From contig NC_057718.1 of NCBI RefSeq assembly GCF_004010195.1, positions 102,372,120 to 102,436,119 on the forward strand: a stretch of DNA of 64,000 nt. The letters are read 5' to 3'. Below are positions 3,892 through 63,432 of the stretch, piece by piece. Every line of letters starts with the position of its first letter. The first letter of the stretch is position 1. The notes under the pieces were generated by a model. The model was given only the letters and a program-made list of their open reading frames with translations, had not been told where the DNA came from and ran no database searches. The stretch is from Chiloscyllium plagiosum (lineage: Eukaryota). The translations under genes and the position numbers were made by a program.

Positions 3892-4100
3892 AGTTAAAAA
3901 TCACACAACACCAGGTTATAGTCCGACAGGTTTAATTGGAAGCACACTAGCTTTCGGAGCGACACTCCTTCATCAGGTCCTGTTAAAGGAGCAGCACTCC
4001 GAAAGCTAGTGTGCTTCCAATTAAACCTGTTGGACTATAACCTGGTGTTGTGTGATTTTTAACTTTGTACACCCCAGTCCAACACCGGCATCTCCAAATC
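3892..4100. mobile_element. Penelope-like terminal remnant, near-perfect inverted pair
   Basis: 3892-3959 pairs with 3997-4064 almost perfectly. The same family recurs at about 6140-6310, 17605-17730, 40949-41047, 47265-47385, 47808-48003, 48465-48585, 53941-54095 and 55320-55445. Confidence 0.7.
3945..3979 (-). ncRNA. Minimal hammerhead ribozyme motif, intact core
   Basis: Minus strand reads ac-CUGAUGA-a-GGAG ugucg CUCC-GAAA-GCUA^gu, with palindromic AGCU. Confidence 0.6.
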
Positions 4101-6140: not shown

Positions 6141-7615
6141 GGTGCCAGTATTGGGTTGGGTGGACAAGGTCAGAAGTCACATGATACCAGGTTATAGTCC
6201 AACAGGTTTATTTGAAATCGCAAGCTTTTGGAGCACTGCTCCTTCTGCAGGTGGCTTCACCTGGAAGGTTGTGATTTGGAGTTCACCTGTTAGACTATAA
6301 CCTGGTGTCGAATTTTTTTTTCTAACTTTCCAGAAATCACAATCTTTTATAATAGTTTAGAGTATTCTTCTTATTACTAAAGTCAAGCTAACAAGTCTGT
6401 AACCCCCTGCTTTGGAAGCCCCTTCCTTTGCTGTCTGGTTTTATGCATCTTGCTGTTTACTTTCATATTTTATTCACTTTGTCTTAATTAATTGCTTGGT
6501 CTTCCTTAACTGAATTCTAAAGTTCTCCCAATCCTCAGACTTGCAACACTTTTCTATCTTAACCAGAAGTTTAGCACATTTTCATTCACCTTTAGGACCT
6601 AGTTTCAATCCATCTTCGACTGATGGAATAAAAAAAGTTTATATTTTTTTCTGTTTGAAGAAATTATACGTGCAGTTTGGGCATTTTTAACCCAGTTTGA
6701 CTATACGTTTATTCTATAATCAGCCACACTGTTGGGATTGAAGGATTCCTCAGCAACCTGGCTTCTATTTCTAGTAGCAATGTAAAGTTTCCACTTTACA
6801 GGGAGAATTATAACCAAGATATCATAGCAAAGTCAATATTTTACATCTTTTTTTAAACAGAGATTTCAATTGCATCTTTCACAAGTAAATCTTAAAAGAA
6901 ACTCATGTGAGAGCTACTAGCACAAGAGTCTCTGTTCATTAACCCCGATATTGTTGTTAAAAAATTAACAAGAGTTTGCTGATCTACTGTTGACTAAGAG
7001 ATCACGAAGTGTGTGGTTATTACAAAAACAGTTTCATGTATTTACATAATGTCATTAATATGAGACATACCTGCAGGAAAGTTCTATGAAGCACAATTTC
7101 TCACCAAATTGGGTAGATGACCAAAAGCTTGCTCAAAGAAGTCAGATTAAGGAGCTTCTTAAATGAGGTGGAGAGGCCAACCAGTTTGGGGAGGGAATTC
7201 CATAATTTGCAGCTGCAGTGGTAGAGCAATGAAAATTCAGGGTGCTTTTAAAATTGAAACATTTGACCAGGATACAAGGTAGATCAGAAAACAAAAAGGC
7301 GAATGGCCAAGGCAACAGAGTTTAATGATAAATTATAACATGCATTATATAAAAATCATGCCATGTTGAAAAATAACAGTGCATTCACAACATTTTTTAA
7401 AAACTGACCAGCCTTTTTTCCTCAGTCATTCAGAGATGAAATCCGATATTGTGCAGCATTTTCATCAAATGTAACTTTCTACTTAGTGCAAATACTTTAT
7501 TGGCAAGTGGAATGACCTTAGTTGTTGATTTAGCCCATATACGCTGTTTGGCTTTTATTTCATAAGTGATAAAAGGAATATTAAAATTGAAACATTTTAT
7601 TTGCTTAATATTTAG

Positions 7616-8749: not shown

Positions 8750-10235
8750 ATCAGCTCCATGTTTTGATTGTCCCCACCCTCTGCATCTTGCTGTCCCATT
8801 CTATGCCTCCGAAGTCTTGCCTAATCGCATTATAATTGCCCTTCCCCCATCTATAACTCTTGCCCTTTGGAATGTATCTATCCCTTTTCCTCACTGAACT
8901 AAGCGTTACCAATTTATGGTCACTCTCTCCAAAGTGCTCACCTATCACTAAATCAAACACCTGGCCTGGTTCATTACCAAGTACCAGATCCAGTGTGGCT
9001 CCTTACCTCTTGTCAGTCCTTCGTTATACTGTGTCAGGAAACCCTCCTGCACACATTGGACAAAAACCTTCCCCAGAATGAGCCTCAATTCCATAAACCT
9101 GTAACCCTCCCTCCTGCACCATCCCTGCAGCCACATCTTCAGCTGATAGCTCTCTCTATTCCTTGCCTCGCTATCACACAGCATGGGGTAACAAACCAGA
9201 GATAACAACTCTGTTTGTTCTAGCTCTCAGCTTCCACCCTAGCTCCCTGAAATCCTGCCTTACATCCCTATCCCTCTTTCTACCTATGTCGTTGGTACCT
9301 ACGTGGACAACGACTTGGGGCTGGTCACTCTCTCCCTTCAGGACCCCAAAGACATGATCCAAGACATCATGGACCATGGCACCTGAGAGGCAACACACCA
9401 ACCGTGAGTCTCTTTCGTTCCCAACAAACCTTGTATCTGACTCTCTCACTACTGAGTCCCCAATGACTAACACTCTCCTTCTTTTCCCCCCTTTCCCTTC
9501 TGTGCAACAGAGATAGACTCTGTTCCAGAGACCTGAACCCCAGTGCATGCCCCTCGTAAATTGTTCCCCCCCTACAGTATCCAAAAGGGTATACTTGTTT
9601 TCCAGGGGAACAATCACAGAGGACCTCTGCACTGGCTGTTTTTCCCCTTCTAAAGGTTACCCAGCTTTCTTCGTGCCTAGGGGTAACTACTTCTCTGTAA
9701 CTCTTATCTATCACAGCCTCTGCGTCCCGACTGATCCGAAGTTCATCCAGCTCCCGCTCCAGTTCCCTAACGCGGTCTTGGAGGAGCAAGAGTTGGGTGC
9801 ACCTCATGCAGATGTACTTGGATGTGACACTAATGGCGTCCCTCACCTCAAACATCATGCCGGAAGAACATTCCTCTCCCTGCACTGCCATCCCAGCTAG
9901 ACCTGTTATCAGAAAGTTTAAAAAAAGAGGAGAAGCTTAGAAGAGAAGCTTACCTGATGTCTCCCTGGTGTTTAAGGTTAGAGGAGGTGGATGGGTGGGA
10001 GGCCCTTCAAGCGTAGAGTCTCAGGTTTACAAAACACTCACTTATAAAGCTGAGGGGGAGAAAATGTCCCTCCTTTGCCAGAAACCTCTGCTATCCAAGG
10101 TGCTGCTGACGCTCGAGGTGGCTTTTAAAGTTTTAAACCAGTGACTCACCTTTCCTGACAGGCCCCTGGTCTAAGCTCCTGTTCTTCCTGCTGCTGGCAA
10201 CTGAAATGGAGGGCTCTGATGCTCGAGGGAAGCAC
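8750..10235 (-). mobile_element. CR1 LINE 5' part: 5' UTR, ORF1 (zinc finger/leucine zipper plus SGNH esterase) fused to an ORF2 endonuclease fragment
   Basis: ECSS..ICMRCTQLLLLQDRVRELERELDEL (9367-9891); VLVIGDSVVR...VVVHVGTNDIG (9174-9632); FVQCVQEGFLTQY and DLVIGEHFGESDH (8750-9070). Confidence 0.85.
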
Positions 10236-24370: not shown

Positions 24371-25905
24371 GGATGGCACTGTGGCTCAGTGGTTAGCACT
24401 GCTGCCTCACAGCACCAGGGTCCATGGTTCAATTCTAGCCTCGGGTGACTGTCTGTGTGGAGTTTGCACATTCTGCCAGTGTCTGCGTGGGTTTCCTCCA
24501 GGTGCTCCAGTTTCCTCCCACAGTCCAAAGATGTGCTGGTCAGCCAGCATGGATTTGTGAGGGGTAGGTCTTGCCTTGCAAGTCTTATTGAATACTTTGA
24601 GGAGGTGACCAAGCATGTGGATGAGGGTAGAGCAGTGGATGTAGTGTACATGGATTTTAGTAAGGCATTTGATAAAACCCATGGTAGGCTTATGCGGAAA
24701 GTCAGGAGGCATGGGATAGTGGGAAATTTGGCCAATTGGATAGAGAATTGGCTAACCGGTTCAGCCTGGAGCCCAGTTACAAGTGGAGTTCCGCAGGGAT
24801 CAGTTCTGGGTCCTCTGCTGTTTGTAATTGTTATTAATGATTTGGAAGAGGGAGTCGAAGGGTGGGTCAGTAAATTTGCAAACGATACGAAGATTGGTGG
24901 AGTTGTGGATAGTGAGGAGGGCTGTTGTCAGCTGCAAAGGGACTTAGATATGATGCAGAGCTGGGCTGAGGAGTGGCAAGATGGAGTTCACCCCGTCAAG
25001 TGTGAGGTTGTCCATTTTGGAAAAACAAATAAGAATGCAGAATACAGGGTTAACAGTAGGGTTCTTAGTAAGGTGGAGGAGCAAAGGGATCTTGGGGTCT
25101 ATGTTCATAGATCTTTGAAAGTTGCCACCCAGGTGGATAGAGCTTGTAAGAAGGCCTATGGTGTATCAGCGTTCATTAGCAGAGGGATTGAATCAAGAGT
25201 CGTGAAGTGATGTTGCAACTATACAGGACTTTGGTTAGGCCACAGGAATAGATAGAGTAGACAGTCAGAGACTTTTTCCCTGGGTACAACAGAGTGTTAC
25301 AAGGGGACATAAATTTAAGGTGAAGGGTCGAAGGTATAGGGGGGATGTCAGGGGTAGGTTCTTTACCCAGAGAGTGGTGGGAGCATGGAATGCGCTGCCT
25401 GTGGGAGTGGTAGAGTCAGAATCTTTGGTGACCTTTAAGCGGCAATTGGATAGGTGCTTAAGCTAGGACAAATGTTCAGCACGACATCGTGGGCTGAAGG
25501 GCCTGTTCTGTGCTGTGATTGTTCTATGTTCTATGGTCATGCTAAATTGCCCATAGTGTTAGGTGCATTAGTCAGAGGGAAATGGGTCTGGGTGGGTTAC
25601 TCTTCAGAGGGTCAGTGTGGACTGAAGGGCCTGTTTCCACACTGTAGGGACTGAAGGGCCTGTTTCCATACTAATCTAATCCACATAACCTTCACATCCA
25701 TGGACACCACAGACAATTTCACACATCCAATCCACCCTAACCTGCATACTTTTGGACTGTGGGAGGAAACCGGAGCACCCGGAGGAAACCCATGCAGACA
25801 CGGGGAGAATGTGCAAACTTCACACAGACAATCGCCTGGGGGTGGAATCGAACCCAGGTCCTTGGTGCTATGAGGCAGTAGTGCTAACCACTGAGCCACC
25901 ATGCT
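24371..25905. mobile_element. V-SINE (+) split by CR1 (24371-24540, 25535-25680), abutting a - copy (25670-25905)
   Basis: Head and V domain precede the CR1; ggtcatgctaaattgccc resumes after it. Confidence 0.8.
24541..25534 (+). mobile_element. CR1 LINE RT/3' fragment inserted in a V-SINE
   Basis: SQHGFVRGRSCL..YMDFSKAFDK..SGVPQGSVLGPLLF..KFANDTK; (gttctat) tail. Confidence 0.9.
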
Positions 25906-26290
25906 GCCTACTTTTAATTCAAACTTTTAATTAATCTTTTAATTCAAAAGGTTTTGAAGTCTTTACCTCAAAGGGTTGTGAATACACCAACATTAAATAT
26001 ATTTAAAGCTGAGATAGAATTTTAGTGTCCAAGGGAATTCAGGGATATATGGAACAGGCAGGAAAGTGGATTTGAAGACCAAAATTGTATAGAATGGTGA
26101 AGCAATGTCAGTGTGCCAAATGGTCTACACATACTCTATTTCTTGTCTTCCTTTGTTTTTGTTAGTCGTTCCACTACATTAAAGGCGCTACATAAATGCA
26201 AGTAATATTGGAGAAAATTGAAACATGAGACGCTTTTAAGTTGCTAAACAAGGAAGAAAGGACTTCAATTGGAATTGATGAAATAAAGAG

Positions 26291-26337
26291 TTTATTAATT
26301 CTCCAATAACAAAGCCTTCTCAGTGTAACGGTTTATT
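26291..26337 (-). promoter_or_regulatory. Candidate PLEK polyadenylation signals
   Basis: tttatt (AATAAA on the minus strand) at 26291-26296 and 26332-26337, about 800 nt past the stop codon. Confidence 0.45.
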
Positions 26338-26681
26338 AATAAACTTGTAAGGAGTGCCATCAGTTTAAATTTGCATCATATGCTAGTCCAGGCTCTGTAC
26401 TGAATTTTGCAATGAAAACAATCTCCCGCAGGCATCACAGAGTGACAATTGATTAGTATCATTCACATTATTTCTCCACGATATCACCAGCATAGGGTGC
26501 ATGCTCGACATATCAACATCATTGCAGCGCTCGCTATAAATACACTGTTAATATTTGCCACAAATAAAGAAAGTTTAGAATAAAAACGAATGAAGCATAC
26601 AATAAAAAGGAAGTGAAAATCAGCCTGTAATTGTCTCTCTTCAGCTAGAGAAATATTCACTAGTTACCAAGAGACAATAAG

Positions 26682-26906
26682 AGAAATTGCTGGAAAAGCT
26701 CAGTAGGTCTGGCAGCATCTGTGGAGAGAAACCAAAGTTAACGTTTCAGGTCCAGTGACCCTTCTTCAGTATCCTAAACAATAACCTAAGCAAAAGCTCA
26801 GAGTTATTGTTTAGGATACTGAAGAAGGGTCACTGGACCTGAAACGTTAACTTTGGTTTCTCTCCACAGATGCTGCCAGACCTACTGAGCTTTTCCAGCA
26901 ATTTCT
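26682..26906. repeat. Perfect 104-bp inverted repeat (Penelope-end derived, one hammerhead core per arm) in PLEK 3' UTR
   Basis: 26682-26785 is the exact reverse complement of 26803-26906, with a 17-nt loop. Confidence 0.9.
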
Positions 26907-27116
26907 ATTTTTGTCTCTGATTTACAGCATCCACAGATCTTTCGGTTTTTATTTAGTAATGAGTTACTAAGACACTGCTTTAGCCATTGTGCGTATACAT
27001 CTAGTTGTTTATATCACTGCTGCCAGCAATAAAGAGTTGACTATTTATTTTGAGAGCTAGTTAATGTCTTTAAAGTTCCGGAGAATCAACAATGTGGTAT
27101 TTGCTTGGCTCCATTT

Positions 27117-27256
27117 TTATTTCCCGGTACTTGCTACACTTTTAATAACCTTTATCCACTCAGTGAGCTCTTCCCGTGTTGCAGCCTGGATCAGGTAGTG
27201 CACTTCATCTGATGTGATGATTTCAAAGAGATTCCCCTTAACATCAGATTTCTTTC
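27117..27256 (-). CDS. PLEK: Pleckstrin exon 9 (last coding exon)
   Basis: acAG|(G)KKSDVKGNLFEIITSDEVHYLIQAATREELTEWIKVIKSVASTGK*. Exons 2-9 join in frame (1020 nt, 339 aa plus stop). Confidence 0.93.
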
Positions 27257-27744
27257 CTGTAAAGAAAATTCTTGGCATGAAATAATTGGTGATTAAACTC
27301 GATACAGACCACGAAACCATTATCTCCACATCCAAAAACCCAAAACAGATAAACACGGCAGTGCACCTACTGAGTTCAGGCCCTTTGGAAAAGACTTTGC
27401 TTTTAGCTCAACAGAGTTTTTTTAACCAAAGGGTCCAAACGGACTATAATGGACCCAAGCACCGAAAGTATCCCTTATCAACAAGCCAGCTGTTCTGAGA
27501 TTTTTGGATAAAGGATTGCTGGCCTATATCAAAAAGAAATCATCAAGACCTTACTGGCAATAATGTGTCCTCCATCAAGCAAATTCGGTAAAATACATAG
27601 AAACATCGAAAATAGGAGCAGGAGTAGGCCTTTCGGCCTTTCAAGCCTGCTCCCCCATTCGATTTTATCATGGCTGATAATCCAACTGAGTCCCCCCTTA
27701 AATAGATTAGGAGGGCTATGAAGACTGGATCAGGTCAGAGAGAT

Positions 27745-28088: not shown

Positions 28089-28164
28089 CATCTGAAAGAC
28101 CATCAGTCGCTGTCACTACACAACTCCGCAAGTGAATGGAACCAAGAGGCTGGTCCTGATCATC
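28089..28164 (-). CDS. PLEK: Pleckstrin exon 8
   Basis: acAG|DDQDQPLGSIHLRSCVVTATDGLSD(G)|GTaagt; 76 nt, phase 0/1. Confidence 0.9.
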
Positions 28165-30011: not shown

Positions 30012-30055
<44 letters not shown>

Positions 30056-31569: not shown

Positions 31570-33150
31570 ACTGACATTGTGAGCTACAGCCAAAATTGAG
31601 AGAGCTGTCTCACAGGCTAGTCAAGCAACAGCCTGACACAGTCATACTCACAGAATCACAGAAAAGTGTTGGAAGGTGTCATCCACAGTGCTGTCCAGCA
31701 GCACCTGCTCAGCAATAACCTATGCAGTGACGCCCAGTTTGGCTTTTGCCAGGGTCACTCAGCTCCTGACTCATTACACCTTCATTCAAGTATGGGCAAA
31801 AGAGCTGAATTCCACAGCTGAGGTGAGAGTGACAGCCCTTGGCATCAAGGCTGCATTCGACAGTGTGGCATCAAGGATTAGATTAGATTCCCAACAGTGT
31901 GGAAACAGGCACTTCAGCCCAACAAGTCCTCACCGACCCTCCGAAGAGCAACCCACCTCTCTCTGACTAATGCAGCTAACACTATGGGCAATTTAGCATG
32001 GCCAACTCACCTGACTTGCACAACTTTGGACTGTGGGAGGAAACCGGAGCACCCGGAGGAAACCCACACAGACACGGGGAGAATGTGCCCGAGTAAAACT
32101 GGAGTCAATGGGTATCAGGGGACAAACTCTCCACTGATTGGTGTCATAGCACATAGGAAGATAGTTGTGGTTGGAAGTCAGTCATCTCAGCTCAAGGACA
32201 TCTCTGGGTAGTATCCATGGCCCAACCATCTTCAGCTGCTTCACCAATGACCTTCCCTCCATCATAAGTTCAGAAGTGGGGATGTTCGTTGATAATTGCA
32301 CCATATTCAACATCATTCCTGACTCCTCAGATACTGAAGCAGTCCATTTTCAAATGCAACAAGATCTGGACAATATCCAGGTTTGGATTAACAAGTGGCA
32401 AGTAACATTTATGTCACACATATACCACGCTGCGACCATCACCAATAACAGACAATCAAACCACCGCCCCATGATATTGAATGGTCTCACCATCACTGAA
32501 CCACCCACAATCAATATTCTGGGTGTTTCCAGTAACTCAACTGGACTCACCACATAAACACAGTGACTCCAAAGAACAGGTCAGAGGCGAAGAATACTGT
32601 AGCAAGTAACTCACCTCCGGACTCCCCCTGTCTCTCCATCATCTAAAATGCACAAGTCAGGAGTGTGATGGGATAATTCCCACTTGCCTGGATGAATGGA
32701 GTTCCAACAACATTCAAGAAGCTTAACACCATCCAGAACAAAGCAGCTGCTTCATTGGCACCACATCCACAAGCGTCCACTCCCTCCACCACTGGCACTC
32801 AGTAGCAGCAGTGTGTACTATCTACAAGATGCACTGCAGCAATTCACCAAAGATCCTTAGATAGCAACTTCCAAACCCACGACCACTTCCATCTAAAAAC
32901 ACCACCACCTACAAGCTCCCTTCCAAGCCACCCACCATCTTGACTTGGAAATATATTGCCGTTCTTTCACAGTCGCTGATCAAAATCCTGGAATTGCCTC
33001 CCCAAGGGTATTGGGGGATCTATCTACAACAGGTGGACTGCAGTGGTACAAGAAGGCAGCTCACCCCTCCTTCTCAAATGGCAACTAGGAACAGGCAATA
33101 AATGCTGGACCCAGCAACTGTGCCCACATCCCACAAATGAATGAAGAAAA
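31570..33150 (+). mobile_element. Second CR1/L2-clade LINE family, decayed RT plus 3' tail
   Basis: VRVTALGIKAAFDSV; GSIHGPTIFSCFTNDLPSIISSEVGMFVDNCT (FADD region). The tail gggcaataaatgctgg..cccacatccca..tgaatgaa also occurs at 4470-4650, 22680-23185 (-), 45010-45185 and 52330-52535. Confidence 0.75.
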
Positions 33151-33220: not shown

Positions 33221-33254
33221 TTCCTGAAGAAGGGCTTATGCCCGAAACGTCGAT
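33221..33254 (+). ncRNA. Minimal type I hammerhead ribozyme motif (Penelope-associated), intact core
   Basis: uc-CUGAAGA-a-GGGC uuau GCCC-GAAA-CGUC^ga: canonical core, 4-bp stem II, palindromic ACGU stem III, GUC cleavage triplet. Confidence 0.7.
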
Positions 33255-47429: not shown

Positions 47430-47630
47430 AGAAAGTGAGGTCTGCAAATGCTGGAGATCAGTAATATGGTGCTGGAAAAGCACAGCAGGTCAGGCAGCAT
47501 CCGAGGAACAGGAGAATCCAAGTTTCGAGCATAAACCCTTCATCAGGAATGTGGTTATGCTCAAAACGTCAACTCTCCTGCTCCTTGGATGCTGCCTGAT
47601 TGGTTGTGTTTTTCCAGCACCATACTTTTT
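47430..47630. mobile_element. Penelope-like terminal remnant, inverted pair (second family)
   Basis: Same family as 33221-33345, 38482-38565 and 57448-57540; minus-strand CUGAUGA at 47540-47546. Confidence 0.6.
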
Positions 47631-49544
47631 GACAGTATTTATACGTAAAAAGGTAACAACTTTATAACTATAGCCCTTGTTGAATCCTTTAAACCATTAG
47701 GAGGTAGACTGCTGAGAAATTTGATGTCTATGTCTATCTGCACAATTTTCTTGGCGATCGTCTCTACTTTGAGCCAACAGTTCGTGCTATCGATCATAGC
47801 TATAATGTGGATGTGCCGGAGTTGAACTGGGGCAGACAATGTCAAAAATCAAAAGACACCAGGTTATAGTCCAACAGGTTTATTTGAAATTGAAATATAC
47901 TTCTCTACCATACCATGTCTGAGGAAGGAGCAGCGGTTCAAGAGCTTGCAATTCCAAATAAACCTGTTGGACTATAACCTGGTGTCTTTTGATTTTTGAC
48001 CTATTTTACATCTCTATCTCTCTTTTACCAACATTAGTACTCCTTTTGTCTTTTGCTCCAGGCACTCTGTTCCACTATCACTCCATTCTCCCTTTGTCAA
48101 AAGCAGAAAAACTCCATTTTCTGGCCCCTTTCAGATCTGAAGAAGAATCTTATCATATTCAAAGCATTAATTCAGTTTCTCTCTCCACGCATGCTACCTG
48201 ACCTGCTGAGTTTCTCCAGCGGTTTCTATTTTAAAACTGGTGCCTTCTCCTAGTTAAGTGGACAGAAAGTCAACAGGGGGTCCATGTCCAAATTGCTGAT
48301 ATGTGATCCACACAAAGAAAGCTGAAGTAACACACCATCCTGCTCCAAGAAAGCCTATCTCAATCTGAAAGTCTTTGTCTGTTATCATCATGTCAACTGT
48401 GGGTAAATTATCTCCTTTATCTTTTCCTATAAATTTGGTGTCCTATGATCCTGCCCCACTAGTTACCCAATGAAGGTGCAGCACTCAAAAAGCTTGTACT
48501 TTCAAATAAACCTGTTGGACTATAACCTGGTGTTGTGTGATTTTTAACTTTGTCCACCCCAGTCCAACAGCAGCACCTCCACATCATGGTTTCTTTGTTT
48601 CAGCAGCACATTCCCTTGAGCGATCCTAAGCACAAGTGCAAGAATTGTGGCAGAATGTCTAGCCTTCGGTGGACTGCAAATATCAATCTGGGGATGAAGA
48701 GGAATAAGTCTGACAACCAAATTGGAAGGTCTTAGCGTCATTGTTGTAGCAGCCTCCTGGCTGTTAAAACACAGGTATATTGCTAATTTGGCGATACCGC
48801 AAGGAATGATGGGTACATTAGCTAAGTAATACTCTAAAATCACAAAAACCCACACAGCAGACACAAGGGAAATGCAGCAGCCAGGTACTAATGACCTTAG
48901 TAGAATGTAAAGGCAACAGTTACCCTGGACAGACATGCTCCCAACAACCTCTCCACTAAACAAAGGAGGGCCCAGACAGAAAGGCAAGGGTCCTGCTATA
49001 CAAAAAAACTAACAGTAACATGGTATTCAAATGATTGACTATTGTTTCAAACTATTGTCTATCTCCCTGATTGGCCAGAACTACAGAAAGATCCAGAAAA
49101 TCATCTGAAAGGTATAAAAACAGCATTCACCTGCAGAGCTTGCTCTTGGAATCTTCTGAGGCCTTCTGAGGAAACCAGCATGGCAAGAGGCAGAGATCCT
49201 CTGACCATCCAGAGAAAGAGCGAGAGAGAGCGAGAGCGAGTGAGAGAGAGCGAAAACGCGAAGAAGAAAGCAGCTTCCTAGACCCAGCACCAGAGCCAGA
49301 CAGAGAAAAAGCAAGTGCGTAAATCTACAGGAGACTCAGGAAGTATTGTAACCTTAAGGGGCCAAATAGTATTAAAAATTAGTTTACTATTAAAGATTAT
49401 TGTAGCTTTGTTTCCAATAAAGTTGGGATTGTTTTGTATTGGTACTGACTTGTGTTCGTATTGATTTGACCGTTTCGGTATTCTGGGACACTTGGGCAAA
49501 TTCATTCATAACATTTTGGTCAGAGTTGTCTTAAGTTGTTTTAA

Positions 49545-55270: not shown

Positions 55271-58200
55271 ATTCCCCAGCTTTGTGAAACAGAGGCTAGC
55301 GAATTCAGTCTGAGAATGAGAATGTGGAAGTGCTGGTGTTGGACTGGGATTCTCAAAGTCAGAAGCCACTCGACACCAGGTTACAGTCCAACAGGGTTTA
55401 TTTAAAATCACAAGCTTCTGGAGCGCTGATCCTTCATCAAGTGAAGTGACTTCTGACTCGGGCTGGAGGAGTATCAGTCTGGAAAAGTGTGAGGTGGTGT
55501 TTTTGGGAAAGACTAACTGGACACGGGAATAACTGGCAGAACGCTGGCACCTGTAAAGGAGCAGAGGGACCTTGGACCTGGCCACAGATCCTTTATGGTG
55601 GCTGTGCTAACTCTCCAGATGATCACGAATCCTGGTACTTCAAGGTATTGTCCACCTGCATCAGTATGTGATACTGCACAAGTGTTGCTTGAGATAATTC
55701 CCTGCCACCAATCTCCTCCCCCTTGTCTTTAGACAAACCTAAAGAGCTGCAGATGCCGTATATCAGAAACAAAAACAGAAATTGCTGGAAAAGCTCAGCA
55801 GGTCTGGCAGCATCTGTGGAGAGAAATCAGAGTTAACGTTTTGGGCCTGGTGACCCTTCCTCCGGACTGTGGCTTATAACCTTTGACTCTGATCCTGCAC
55901 ATCGCCGCTTCCCCACTCTGTCTGTAAAATTTTAAGCTGCCTTTAACAATCTGTAGCAACAGCTGATTTCCCATCTCTGAACCAATCAGCTGCATGTAAG
56001 GGGTTTGCTGGCAATCTCCCAGACAGAAAGCAGTGCATCACACAGAATCTGGGATGAGTCCATAAAATACTTTAAGAAGGATTAGGATTTGCCTTAATTT
56101 TGTAAGATTAAGGTTATTTTGTTTTCTTTTTGATTCAAAGCTTTCAATCTTGTACTGTAAAATCATAAATAACGAGGACAGGCAGAAATCCATTGAGCCC
56201 ATCTTTAATGGGCTGGCTCCCTCCAGCACTTCCTGTCTATCTCCACAATCTAATTTAAGACAGAGATAGAAAGGTCCTTGATTAATAAGGGCATCAAGGG
56301 TTACGGGAGAAGGCAGGGGAACAGTGTCGTGAAACATATCAGCCATGATCAAATGGTGGAGCAGACCTCGTAGATTCCCTAGTGTGGAAGCAGACCACTC
56401 AGCCCATCGAATCTACACCAACCCTCCGAAGAACATCCCACCCAGATCCCCCCTATCCTATTCCTGTAACCTTGCATTTTCCAGGGCCAATCCACCCTAA
56501 CCTGCACAATTTTGGCGTATGGGAGGAAACCAGAGCAGGCCGAGGAAACCCACACAGACATGGGAGAACTGCAAACTCCACACAGACAGACAGTTGTCCA
56601 AGGGTGGAATCGAACCCAGGTCCCTGGTGCTGTGAGGCAGCAGTGCTGACCACTGAACCACCATGCTGCAAACCTGATGGACCAAATGGTCCAACTCTTC
56701 TGCTATATGTTATGGTCTAATCTTTTACTCCTCCATTTCTCCTTCTGGAGGATCTGTGCATCTGTGAACTTCAAATCCTAAAGGATTCTAAGAAAGCTTA
56801 ACCTCACATCAGCTCTGCTTCATTCACCTTAAATCTGTCTCTTCTGGCTTTTCAGCCCCTTTATTCTATCCAAGTGTTTCATGATTTTATACAAATCTTA
56901 TCTTAGCTTTCTCTTTGACCCCAGCTTCACCAGTCTATCAATGTAACTATAATCAGTTATTCCTGAGACCTTTATGGTAAATCCCTTCTACACCCTCTTC
57001 CAAGTCTTCACATCCCTCCTAATGCCTAATGCTCAGAATTGGGCATAATTCCTTTCCTTTACATGTTCATAGGATACAGGTATCATTGACTCATCCAAAA
57101 TGTATGTTCCATCCCTAACTGCCCAGGGAGTTACTAGTGCAGTGGTAATGTCACTGGACTAGTGTCTTCCCACTGGGATAGGAGGGGACCTGTGTTTTGT
57201 GTAACTGTAGTTCTATCTCTTCTCCCTGTTTTGGAGGGTTGAGACATGGGTTTTGATTGGATTGATCCATGCTTCTGGGAGAAGCTCAATTGTGGTTTGT
57301 CATGGCCTTTGGCAGGATGACTGACCAGGAGACTCTCCCATTCTTACTGCCTGGTATAAGGGGCATTGGAAGGATTTACAAACAGACAATCAACTTGGTC
57401 ATGTCTCTTGAATGTACCTTCCAAGGCCAACATGGCCAAGGAGGAGTCAAAACGTGTGGCACTGGAAAAGCACAGTAGGTCAGGCAGCATCCCAGGAGCA
57501 GGAGAGCTGACGTTCTGGACACAAGCCCTTCATCAGGATTATGGAAGGGGAAGGGGGCTGAGAGATAAATAGGGGGTTGGGGGTGGGGCTGGGGAGAACG
57601 TAGCTGGGAAGTTGGTAGGTAGATGTAGGTGAGGGGTGATGGTGGTAAGTCGATGGGGAGAATGGAGTGGATAGGAGGGAAGAAAGATGGACAGGTCAGA
57701 TGGGGAGGGTGGGAGCTTCTGGCCCAGAGACAGTGATACTCATCTCTCATTACGATTAGACAGCTTCTTGATGCAGACATTGATTTTCCTTCGCTCTGGA
57801 GTTGTGAATCCTGGAGGTGACTAAACAGTCTGATGCTGATCTGTAGACCTGGTTGTGTGGGAGGAAGTGGGTGTTTGGGTGGGAATGCCTGGGCTTTAGC
57901 ACACTCTTTGCCTCTGGCCTCCTCCTGAGCCTGTCCAAAACACTTAAGACAGCTGGCACCTTCGCGGATGCTCCTGCTCCAGTTCAGACACTTTGACGGC
58001 AAGAGATTTCTAGGAGGCTGGGAAGAGAATGCAGCCCACTGTGCCACCAGCCCTCCTGAACTGTAATTGGATGGAAGACCATAGCCAAGTAGCTTATTTC
58101 ATGTATTCCTCAAACTCCAGATGACATTTAGCAAGATTAGTATTTATCAGCACCAAGTAGCTAAGTTTTTTGCAAGAAGCAGTCAGTGAACGGTCAGACT

Positions 58201-62324: not shown

Positions 62325-63432
62325 GATGGACATGTATTTGGAAAAGCAAGGACTGATTCGGGATAGTCAACATGGCTTTGTGCGTGGGAAGTCATGTCTC
62401 ATAAACTTGATTGAGCTTTTTGAAGAAATAACAAAGAAGATTGATGAGGGCAGAGCAGTAGATGTGATCTATATGGACTTCAGTAAGGCGTTTGAGAAGG
62501 TTCCCCATGGGAGACTGATTAGCAAGGTTAGATCTCATGGAATACAGGGAGAACTAGCCACTTGGATACAGAACTGGCTCAAAGGTAGAAGACAGAGGGT
62601 GGTGGTGGAGAGTTNNNNNNNNNNNNNNNNNNNNNNNNNNNNNNNNNNNNNNNNNNNNNNNNNNNNNNNNNNNNNNNNNNNNNNNNNNNNNNNNNNNNNN
62701 NNNNNNNNNNNNNNNNNNNNNNNNNNNNNNNNNNNNNNNNNNNNNNNNNNNNNNNNNNNNNNNNNNNNNNNNNNNNNNNNNNNNNNNNNNNNNNNNNNNN
62801 NNNNNNNNNNNNNNNNNNNNNNNNNNNNNNNNNNNNNNNNNNNNNNNNNNNNNNNNNNNNNNNNNNNNNNNNNNNNNNNNNNNNNNNNNNNNNNNNNNNN
62901 NNNNNNNNNNNNNNNNNNNNNNNNNNNNNNNNNNNNNNNNNNNNNNNNNNNNNNNNNNNNNNNNNNNNNNNNNNNNNNNNNNNNNNNNNNNNNNNNNNNN
63001 NNNNNNNNNNNNNNNNNNNNNNNNNNNNNNNNNNNNNNNNNNNNNNNNNNNNNNNNNNNNNNNNNNNNTTTACAAAATTATGAGGGACATGGATAGGATA
63101 AATAGACAAAGTATTTTCCCTGGGGTCAGGGAGTCCAGAACTAGAGGGCATAGGTTTAGGGTGAGAGGGGAAAGATATAAAAGAGACCTAAGGGGCAACT
63201 TTTTCACACAGAGGGTGGTACATGTATGGAATGAGCTGCCAGAGGATGTGGTGGAGGCTGGTACGACTGCAATATTTAAAAGGCATTTGGATGGGTATAT
63301 GAATAGGAAGGGTTTGGTGGGATATGGGCCTGGTGCTGGTAGGTGGGACTAGATTGGGTTGGGATATCTGGTTGGTATGGACGGGTTGGACTGAAGGGTC
63401 TGTTTCCATGCCGTACGTCTCTATGACTCTCT
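62325..63432 (+). mobile_element. CR1 LINE (RT to 3' end, spanning the N gap) inserted in a V-SINE
   Basis: DSQHGFVRGKSCL..YMDFSKAFEKVPHGRL; the 3' end lies after the gap. SINE head at 62222-62298 and body at 63432-63670. Confidence 0.85.
62615..63067. other. Assembly gap (453 N)
   Basis: Run of N inside a CR1 copy. Confidence 1.

Follow-up and report, generated by a model that had tools for sequence, protein, structure and literature searches.

The PLEK locus

The window, by which we mean the whole 64,000-nucleotide stretch of Chiloscyllium plagiosum DNA that was analysed, carries on its minus strand a series of exon pieces whose Pfam matches are PH, DEP, PH and PH domains in that order. 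The DEP piece matches pleckstrin with an E-value of 3e-20, compared with 2e-9 for pleckstrin-2, and on these sequence grounds the host gene is PLEK. The features of its 3' untranslated region (UTR), including an inverted repeat with perfectly paired arms, are collected in Table 1.

Table 1. Features in and around the inverted repeat of the PLEK 3' UTR, in window coordinates.
Feature	Position	Strand	Basis
PLEK stop codon	27117-27119	-	open reading frame
Coding portion of the last PLEK exon, where the C-terminal PH domain ends; joined by splicing to the exon ending near 28089	27117..27256	-	domains, contigs
PLEK 3' UTR of about 800 nt, running from the stop codon as far as the inferred cleavage site (near 26316-26319)	26316..27116	-	contig ends at 26316, 26318 and 26354
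AATAAA matching transcript ends 14-16 nt downstream	26332..26337	-	motif and contig ends
Perfect 104-bp inverted repeat (26682-26785 / 26803-26906)	26682..26906	.	complementarity, folding
Inverted stub without tail, bearing the sole hammerhead core in sense orientation in PLEK mRNA (start of the core, 26769)	26670..26769	-	
Centre: 16 nt of filler foreign to the family in both arms, an imperfect inward continuation of 7 nt, a loop of 4 nt and a 10-nt family fragment (26792-26801)	26770..26818	.	
Long stub of the repeat (putative Penelope-type terminal repeat), whose 5' truncation falls exactly on the first C of the hammerhead core; sense on plus	26819..26918	+	alignment, motif
One-sided 35-nt tail, on the long arm only, with an AATAAA at its end when read on the mRNA strand (26948-26953)	26919..26953	+	
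Left copy of the likely target-site duplication, overlapping the arm start by 3 nt	26662..26672	+	10/11 identical to 26962-26972
Right copy of the likely target-site duplication, 8 nt past the tail	26962..26972	+	

Geometry of the inverted repeat

The two arms are complementary at 104 of 104 positions across a spacer of 17 nt, just as the original prediction, made from the letters of the window, had claimed. Folding of the hairpin region gave -231 kcal/mol with a z-score of -30.8, and none of the 100 shuffled sequences folded equally well. When the whole 799-nt PLEK UTR was folded, the 104 stem pairs had a predicted mean probability of 0.999, and the PLEK mRNA is predicted by this modelling to carry a long double-stranded RNA (dsRNA) stem.

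The symmetry extends past the perfect block at both ends. The repeat finder lengthened the arms to 116 nt at 98% identity, and when 26670-26791 was aligned globally to 26796-26918 in reverse complement, 123 columns resulted, with four differences, all at the ends. Two mismatches (26678 and 26681) fall in the outer 12 nt and are followed by the 104 perfect columns, while one gap and one mismatch fall in the inner seven columns, leaving a true loop of 4 nt (26792-26795). The small second hairpin described earlier in the loop does pair, but it is not a separate structure, as it forms the inward continuation of the same inverted repeat. Sibling inverted pairs are clearly diverged, again as first described: self-alignment identity was 95% for the PLEK fold-back and 68-91% for the other repeat-type fold-backs in the window. 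In addition, the 16 inner nucleotides said to be absent from the siblings were missing from the 11 sibling pieces that were aligned.

Penelope-type anatomy of the arms

The arm sequence aligns in 38 pieces within the 64-kb window, several of which form diverged inverted pairs, and the arms are likely the 3' end of an abundant shark repeat of Penelope-type anatomy. Passages of PMC3846280 and PMC8557442 describe the Penelope insertion unit as head-to-head inverted truncated stubs with a one-sided tail of 30-40 bp and a duplication of 8-10 bp, and read the palindromes at inverted junctions as products of self-priming. In the PLEK copy, an inverted 5'-truncated terminal-repeat copy lies beside a direct copy, and a 35-nt tail occurs at one end only. 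This tail is also found on sibling copies at 55735 and 1062 and is missing from short arms; the origin of the tail in Penelope-like elements is treated in part of PMC11167929. The 11-mer of the near target-site duplication has one other match with at most one mismatch on the plus strand of the window. By eye, the 8 nt between the tail and the target duplication appear as a short inverted copy of the adjoining target, a tiny fold-back within 26954-26968.

The assignment to Penelope, which we regard as likely, rests on anatomy. A parent element of this kind would encode a telomerase-like reverse transcriptase together with a GIY-YIG endonuclease. The Pfam scan covered 147 of the 232 frames (at least 70 aa) of the window, and among these neither a GIY-YIG domain nor a Penelope open reading frame beside any family copy was found; two RVT_1 matches (24449 and 32165) are not joined to the hairpin. 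Motif scans of metagenome, viral and prokaryote genome contigs gave 0 matches.

Hammerhead motifs

One hammerhead core lies on each strand (plus 26819 and minus 26769) and stem I is broken, which agrees with the two damaged cores reported at the outset. A reading with two ribozymes in one RNA was rejected, since the cores lie on opposite strands and the PLEK mRNA has one. Its stem I has the 5' strand replaced by filler, with A facing A at the first pair; the sibling copy at 943 on the minus strand retains the pairing strand. Stem II is closed by G-U in place of G10.1-C11.1. Part of PMC4209133 characterises the minimal hammerhead (min-HHR) by one additional base ahead of stem II and by a stem III that is palindromic and has no loop. 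Motif inspection of the PLEK copy likewise revealed the core boxes, the extra nucleotide located after position 9 and ahead of 10.1, a palindromic 15.2-16.2 and a palindromic, loopless stem III. The marks of an active hammerhead, namely a stem I of 4-5 bp by the core and G10.1-C11.1, are lacking, as is a same-strand partner for the dimeric fold with one core per strand. The same part of PMC4209133 states that a single min-HHR motif does not cleave and that dimers have low activity, and it places min-HHR pairs on opposite strands 100-700 bp apart.

No Rfam family reached its gathering score in the window, and no hammerhead family was matched at E up to 10 within 26600-27000, so the ribozyme call rests on motif inspection. 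Matches to Rfam miRNA models at E up to 10 were rejected as generic hairpins (33.7 bits against a cut-off of 69). Because of the broken stem I, the G-U pair in stem II, the missing same-strand partner and the position of the motif within a long stem, the hammerhead in PLEK mRNA is predicted to be inactive. The suggestion that the stem sequesters the ribozyme is formally true, but it is moot with one core per mRNA, no stem I and a partner being required according to that part of PMC4209133.

Inclusion of the hairpin in PLEK mRNA

The mRNA strand has four AATAAA motifs, at 27044, 26948, 26332 and 26291. Two of them (27044-27049 and 26948-26953) come ahead of the hairpin in the mRNA, a point on which the original prediction was silent, and inclusion of the hairpin therefore needed testing. 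We compared four of the 24 listed sequencing runs over 25910-27290, and organisms B, C and D gave matching contigs. As no run is on record as RNA, RNA status was judged by splicing. The match to the window ends at 27257 in the contigs of all three organisms, and the loose end of the organism C contig matches 28090-28107 exactly, over a GT-AG intron, indicating that at least the C contig is spliced RNA. Within the first bin of the intron the depth dropped to 0 in B, 0 in C and 8.7 in D.

On the far side of the hairpin, the distal UTR contigs start at 26316 (B), 26354 (C) and 26318 (D), and those of B and D end 14-16 nt past the AATAAA at 26332-26337; none of the compared runs covered 26098-26285. 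Depth beyond and before the hairpin was 721 and 708 in D, 3.5 and 4.2 in C, and 16 and 48.7 in B, where the ratio is not clean because the proximal contig takes in coding exons. It is possible that organism B makes partial use of a proximal polyadenylation site. The equal depth on either side in D is as expected without cleavage at the hammerhead. Among the listed B, C and D pieces no single contig crosses the entire hairpin stretch, and a high-copy repeat is expected to break the assembly graph in this way.

These results support the conclusion that the PLEK transcript runs through the hairpin to about 26316-26318 with both arms in the mature mRNA, and since distal UTR contigs lie past the hairpin, the stem lies within the mRNA. 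The placement of the hairpin inside the PLEK 3' UTR thus stood up in B, C and D. The AATAAA pair first proposed for this UTR (26291-26337) was right as to the motif at 26332, which fits the transcript ends, and overlooked the two that precede the hairpin. The AATAAA at 26948-26953 sits in the tail of the element just before the stem, where its use would give a short UTR without the hairpin, and the lower distal depth in B could reflect such use.

Age and divergence

Organism D differs from the window at 17 of 515 unique UTR positions, with one further gap (3.3%). Its contigs 26318-26713 and 26914-27257 cross from unique UTR into the element on both sides; as both junctions are common to D, the insertion predates the split from organism D, and the very recent insertion first proposed does not hold at this UTR divergence. 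Within the element, one of 181 covered positions differs in D (Fisher one-sided p 0.031, two-sided 0.054, against the unique UTR), and none of 86 arm letters has changed (p 0.056).

Arms left alone at the divergence of D would be expected to show about 3.8 differences in 116 positions, and 2 were seen (p 0.26). With the tip included, 4 differences in 123 compare with 4.06 expected (p 0.62), so the total divergence needs no conversion. The differences are clustered at the ends, with p 0.029 for the outer 2 in 116 and p 0.002 for the 4 in 123. Arm-to-arm conversion, which had been put forward to explain the perfect arms, is therefore possible but unneeded for the total, and only the end clustering is odd. 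Pure neutral decay fits poorly with this clustering and with the low divergence of the element, and the slightly high conservation may reflect repair between arms or selection. Repair biased to the old letter would also lower divergence, as in work on Y palindromes and plastid inverted repeats.

Both arms carry variants that are rare in the family, at 26704, 26732 and 26735, a pattern to be expected had either arm served as the template for the other during insertion or afterwards. At 26735 and 26884, the letter typical of the family accounts for 93-99% of the depth in B and D. The B distal contig, which extends further into the repeat than the D contig, reaches 26730 with three unplaced differences and has none in its 710 other letters. 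By exclusion these three differences probably lie within 26679-26730 (p 3e-4 if so), and they could represent editing, a different left arm or an assembly path via a paralog. The C distal contig ends at 26703, the exact end of a 10-nt direct repeat, at a depth of 3.5; this end may be due to chance or to a branch from skipping between the direct repeats. In the RNA contigs of B and D, fold-back junctions are numerous among family members, joining arms of differing length across fillers of 2-40 nt.

Centre of the palindrome

The 10-nt fragment at the centre, 26792-26801, directly repeats 26694-26703. For the 17-nt filler, the rest of the window offers no match better than 3 mismatches, and no templated source was found there. 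A 117-nt contig of organism D (depth 901) matches 26792-26888 at 97 of 97 positions and has 20 family-type letters ahead of 26792, where the window has 26772-26791. The k=31 graph of the window centre breaks at the arm-loop junction (unitigs 26756-26832 and 26803-26906); the D contig is unbroken, which indicates that the centre differs in D. The 10 nt at 26792-26801 are thus read as the remnant of a short extra stub of which more is kept in D.

We prefer the reading that D has a longer palindrome with both arms collapsed into the 117-nt contig, and that the window form came about by asymmetric central deletion, a change described at palindromes in part of PMC8701086. The longer D palindrome is deduced from graph logic and depth, as the inner left arm of D (26714-26791) is not seen as a separate piece, and the depth ratio of 1.26, compared with the 2 expected for two collapsed arms, does not decide. 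A short or diverged left arm in D, with the inner left arm of the window supplied by a later template switch, also fits. The longer-palindrome reading is preferred because the left flank of D already reaches into 26704-26713. Among the listed contigs of B and C, none lies over the inner arms or the window centre.

Origin of the hairpin

Based on the inverted arms, the one-sided tail, the near target-site duplication, the inclusion in a spliced transcript, the presence in D and the broken stem I, we suggest with moderate confidence that the hairpin arose before the split from D, when the 3' end of a Penelope-like retroelement entered the PLEK 3' UTR in one fold-back insertion, and that it is now a read-through passenger with a predicted perfect 104-bp stem and a dead ribozyme. 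The polymerase of the element would have copied about 135 nt of its own 3' end and halted at the hammerhead core, and would then have added the filler and a short second stub. The product would next have folded back, and the polymerase would have copied its own product outward, and such self-copying would place the rare variants, together with the filler, in the two arms simultaneously. The centre would originally have been longer, as in D, and would later have been trimmed asymmetrically in the window lineage, which left the 4-nt loop with two errors next to it. The clean middle may owe something to repair between the arms.

An unlikely alternative is that the window lineage started from an ordinary fold-back stub of greater age, which a replication template switch later rebuilt, in which the right arm and the filler were copied into the left side, so that a quasi-palindrome was made perfect in one step and the 10-nt direct repeat was left behind. 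Deleting 26704-26801 does leave a plain unit of short arm, filler and long arm, and what has been inserted is an inverted copy with a direct repeat at its sides, an outcome described for template-switch mutations in part of PMC10710096. Such a switch accounts for a sharp perfect block with errors at both ends and for the different centre of D, and the unplaced differences in the B distal contig would agree with it. On the other hand, the left flank contig of D already runs past the direct repeat into 26704-26713 with the letters of the window. Furthermore, the 20 letters that precede 26792 in D differ at 2 places, by eye, from the start of the left arm of D, so that D is not simply the unduplicated form.

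We consider it rather less likely still that the Penelope relic is now kept by selection as a dsRNA element of PLEK mRNA, for ADAR editing, Staufen binding, nuclear retention or small RNAs, perhaps switched via the AATAAA in its tail. The lower divergence of D inside the element, the unchanged arm letters, the perfect middle and the long UTR at high depth in D all agree with it. Passages of PMC12695637 place short-loop inverted repeats in exons and UTRs among the immunogenic, edited class in human cells, and PMC3681739, in part, reports siRNAs from inverted Penelope copies in flies; both serve as analogies. However, the statistics are borderline and depend on a single outgroup, whose assembly passes through a repeat tangle in which variants are lost from contigs. 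Compensatory changes were not observed, and a pair that never varies is uninformative on structure; moreover, the centre changed between species. The D arm contig has 0 changes in 97 positions and no dominant A-to-G change, although contigs drop rare variants.

That this blood-cell gene has retained a perfect 104-bp dsRNA element in its mRNA across shark species, the arms identical while the flanking UTR drifted by 3%, is doubtful to the same degree. If true, the element would have been exapted as a module for editing, sensing or small RNAs, one that polyadenylation at its own tail could leave out, and the abundant stubs would be a one-step source of perfect self-dsRNA in shark mRNAs.

Least probable by far is that the perfect arms are an assembly or polishing artefact, by fold-back or by homogenisation of similar arms, because organism D gives independent evidence of the right arm with the filler, of where the left arm begins and of 11 nt in the spacer, and because the mismatches at both ends and the spacer are unlike a clean fold-back. 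The original prediction had also raised a fold-back artefact and proposed a check of the raw reads. Four possible source runs contain 0.98-0.99 of 84 words, though they do not count as evidence independent of the assembly, and with a chance of 0.046 that at most one loop word was sampled, the loop of the palindrome is probably in those reads. In the direction of an artefact, the window centre is unspanned by any listed contig of an independent sample, and the unplaced left-arm differences in B could reflect the real sequence. In four other large runs from this species, 0.88-0.92 of the words are present; the shares in other same-species samples range over 0.84-0.92, and their missing words have no assignable position.

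Comparison with known systems

As an insertion the PLEK copy is ordinary, since Penelope fold-back stubs with minimal hammerheads have already been described and are common in this genome. It is set apart by its place and state: it is exonic and read through in several species, its 104 bp pair perfectly around a very small loop, and it is older than such perfection would lead one to expect. As far as described in parts of PMC3846280, PMC8557442 and PMC11167929, the endonuclease-bearing Penelope-like insertion unit resembles it in the head-to-head stubs, the 35-nt tail on one arm, the near 11-nt duplication and the palindromic junction. The PLEK copy differs in having no open reading frame, a length of about 290 nt, a location in an expressed 3' UTR and a mirror that includes the 16-nt filler and a nested family fragment. 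It shares with the min-HHR of metazoan Penelope repeats, in the account given in part of PMC4209133, the intact core boxes, the extra nucleotide, the loopless stem III and a second motif on the opposite strand; it differs in that the 5' strand of stem I is filler, in the G-U pair, in the lack of a same-strand partner and in lying inside a long stem.

The UTR dsRNAs formed by inverted repeats (inverted Alu pairs and the inverted ERV pair in the MRPL19 3' UTR; passages of PMC12695637) are likewise intramolecular stems of mobile-element origin with a short loop. The PLEK stem comes from one insertion rather than two copies, is perfect but shorter (104-120 bp compared with about 280), lies in a shark host and is known here from sequence. 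Template-switch hairpins, as covered in part of PMC10710096, share the inverted copy, the flanking direct repeat and the perfect pairing, but the stretch copied in PLEK would be about 88 nt compared with 28 and up to 83 nt in the examples given there, and the PLEK stem is far longer than a miRNA precursor. The siRNA-producing inverted Penelope of Drosophila (PMC3681739, in part) is also transcribed inverted Penelope sequence able to form dsRNA, but the PLEK case concerns vertebrate soma and a host mRNA instead of an element transcript, and is likewise a case described from sequence. Non-LTR retrozymes (bioRxiv 10.64898/2026.07.22.740005) are similarly Penelope-related, hammerhead-bearing and non-coding. 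In the part of that source concerned they are defined by at least two tandem units with a complete hammerhead each, whereas PLEK has an inverted pair with broken motifs, and identity as a retrozyme was rejected because the arms are inverted, not tandem.

In the literature searched, with most subscription journals outside its scope, no report of a Penelope element with hammerhead or UTR dsRNA in sharks or other cartilaginous fish was found. The locus is convenient for testing how cartilaginous fish handle self dsRNA (editing, Dicer, MDA5 and PKR), and it also suits the study of how short inverted arms repair one another where the genome evolves slowly.

Neighbouring features of the window

Fold-back pairs of a second repeat family lie at 3892-4064, 6183-6309 and 47841-48000, of which the pair at 3892 is 92% complementary with 1 nt between its arms. 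A third family with hammerhead cores occurs at 33224 on the plus strand and at 47465-47624, one of them as a fold-back pair. A 32-nt perfect self-complementary match at 30023-30054 is only a TA microsatellite. The LINE-like remnants comprise a GDSL/OSK-like frame at 9177-9656 on the minus strand and reverse-transcriptase pieces at 24449-25207 and 32165-32554 on the plus strand, and an assembly gap of 454 N at 62615-63068 lies within a LINE fragment. An exon with an F-box domain is found at 1403-1738 on the plus strand, and just past it, at 2079-2265, is a diverged palindromic element of another type. In human, FBXO48 lies next to PLEK, and an F-box exon here would fit conserved gene order.
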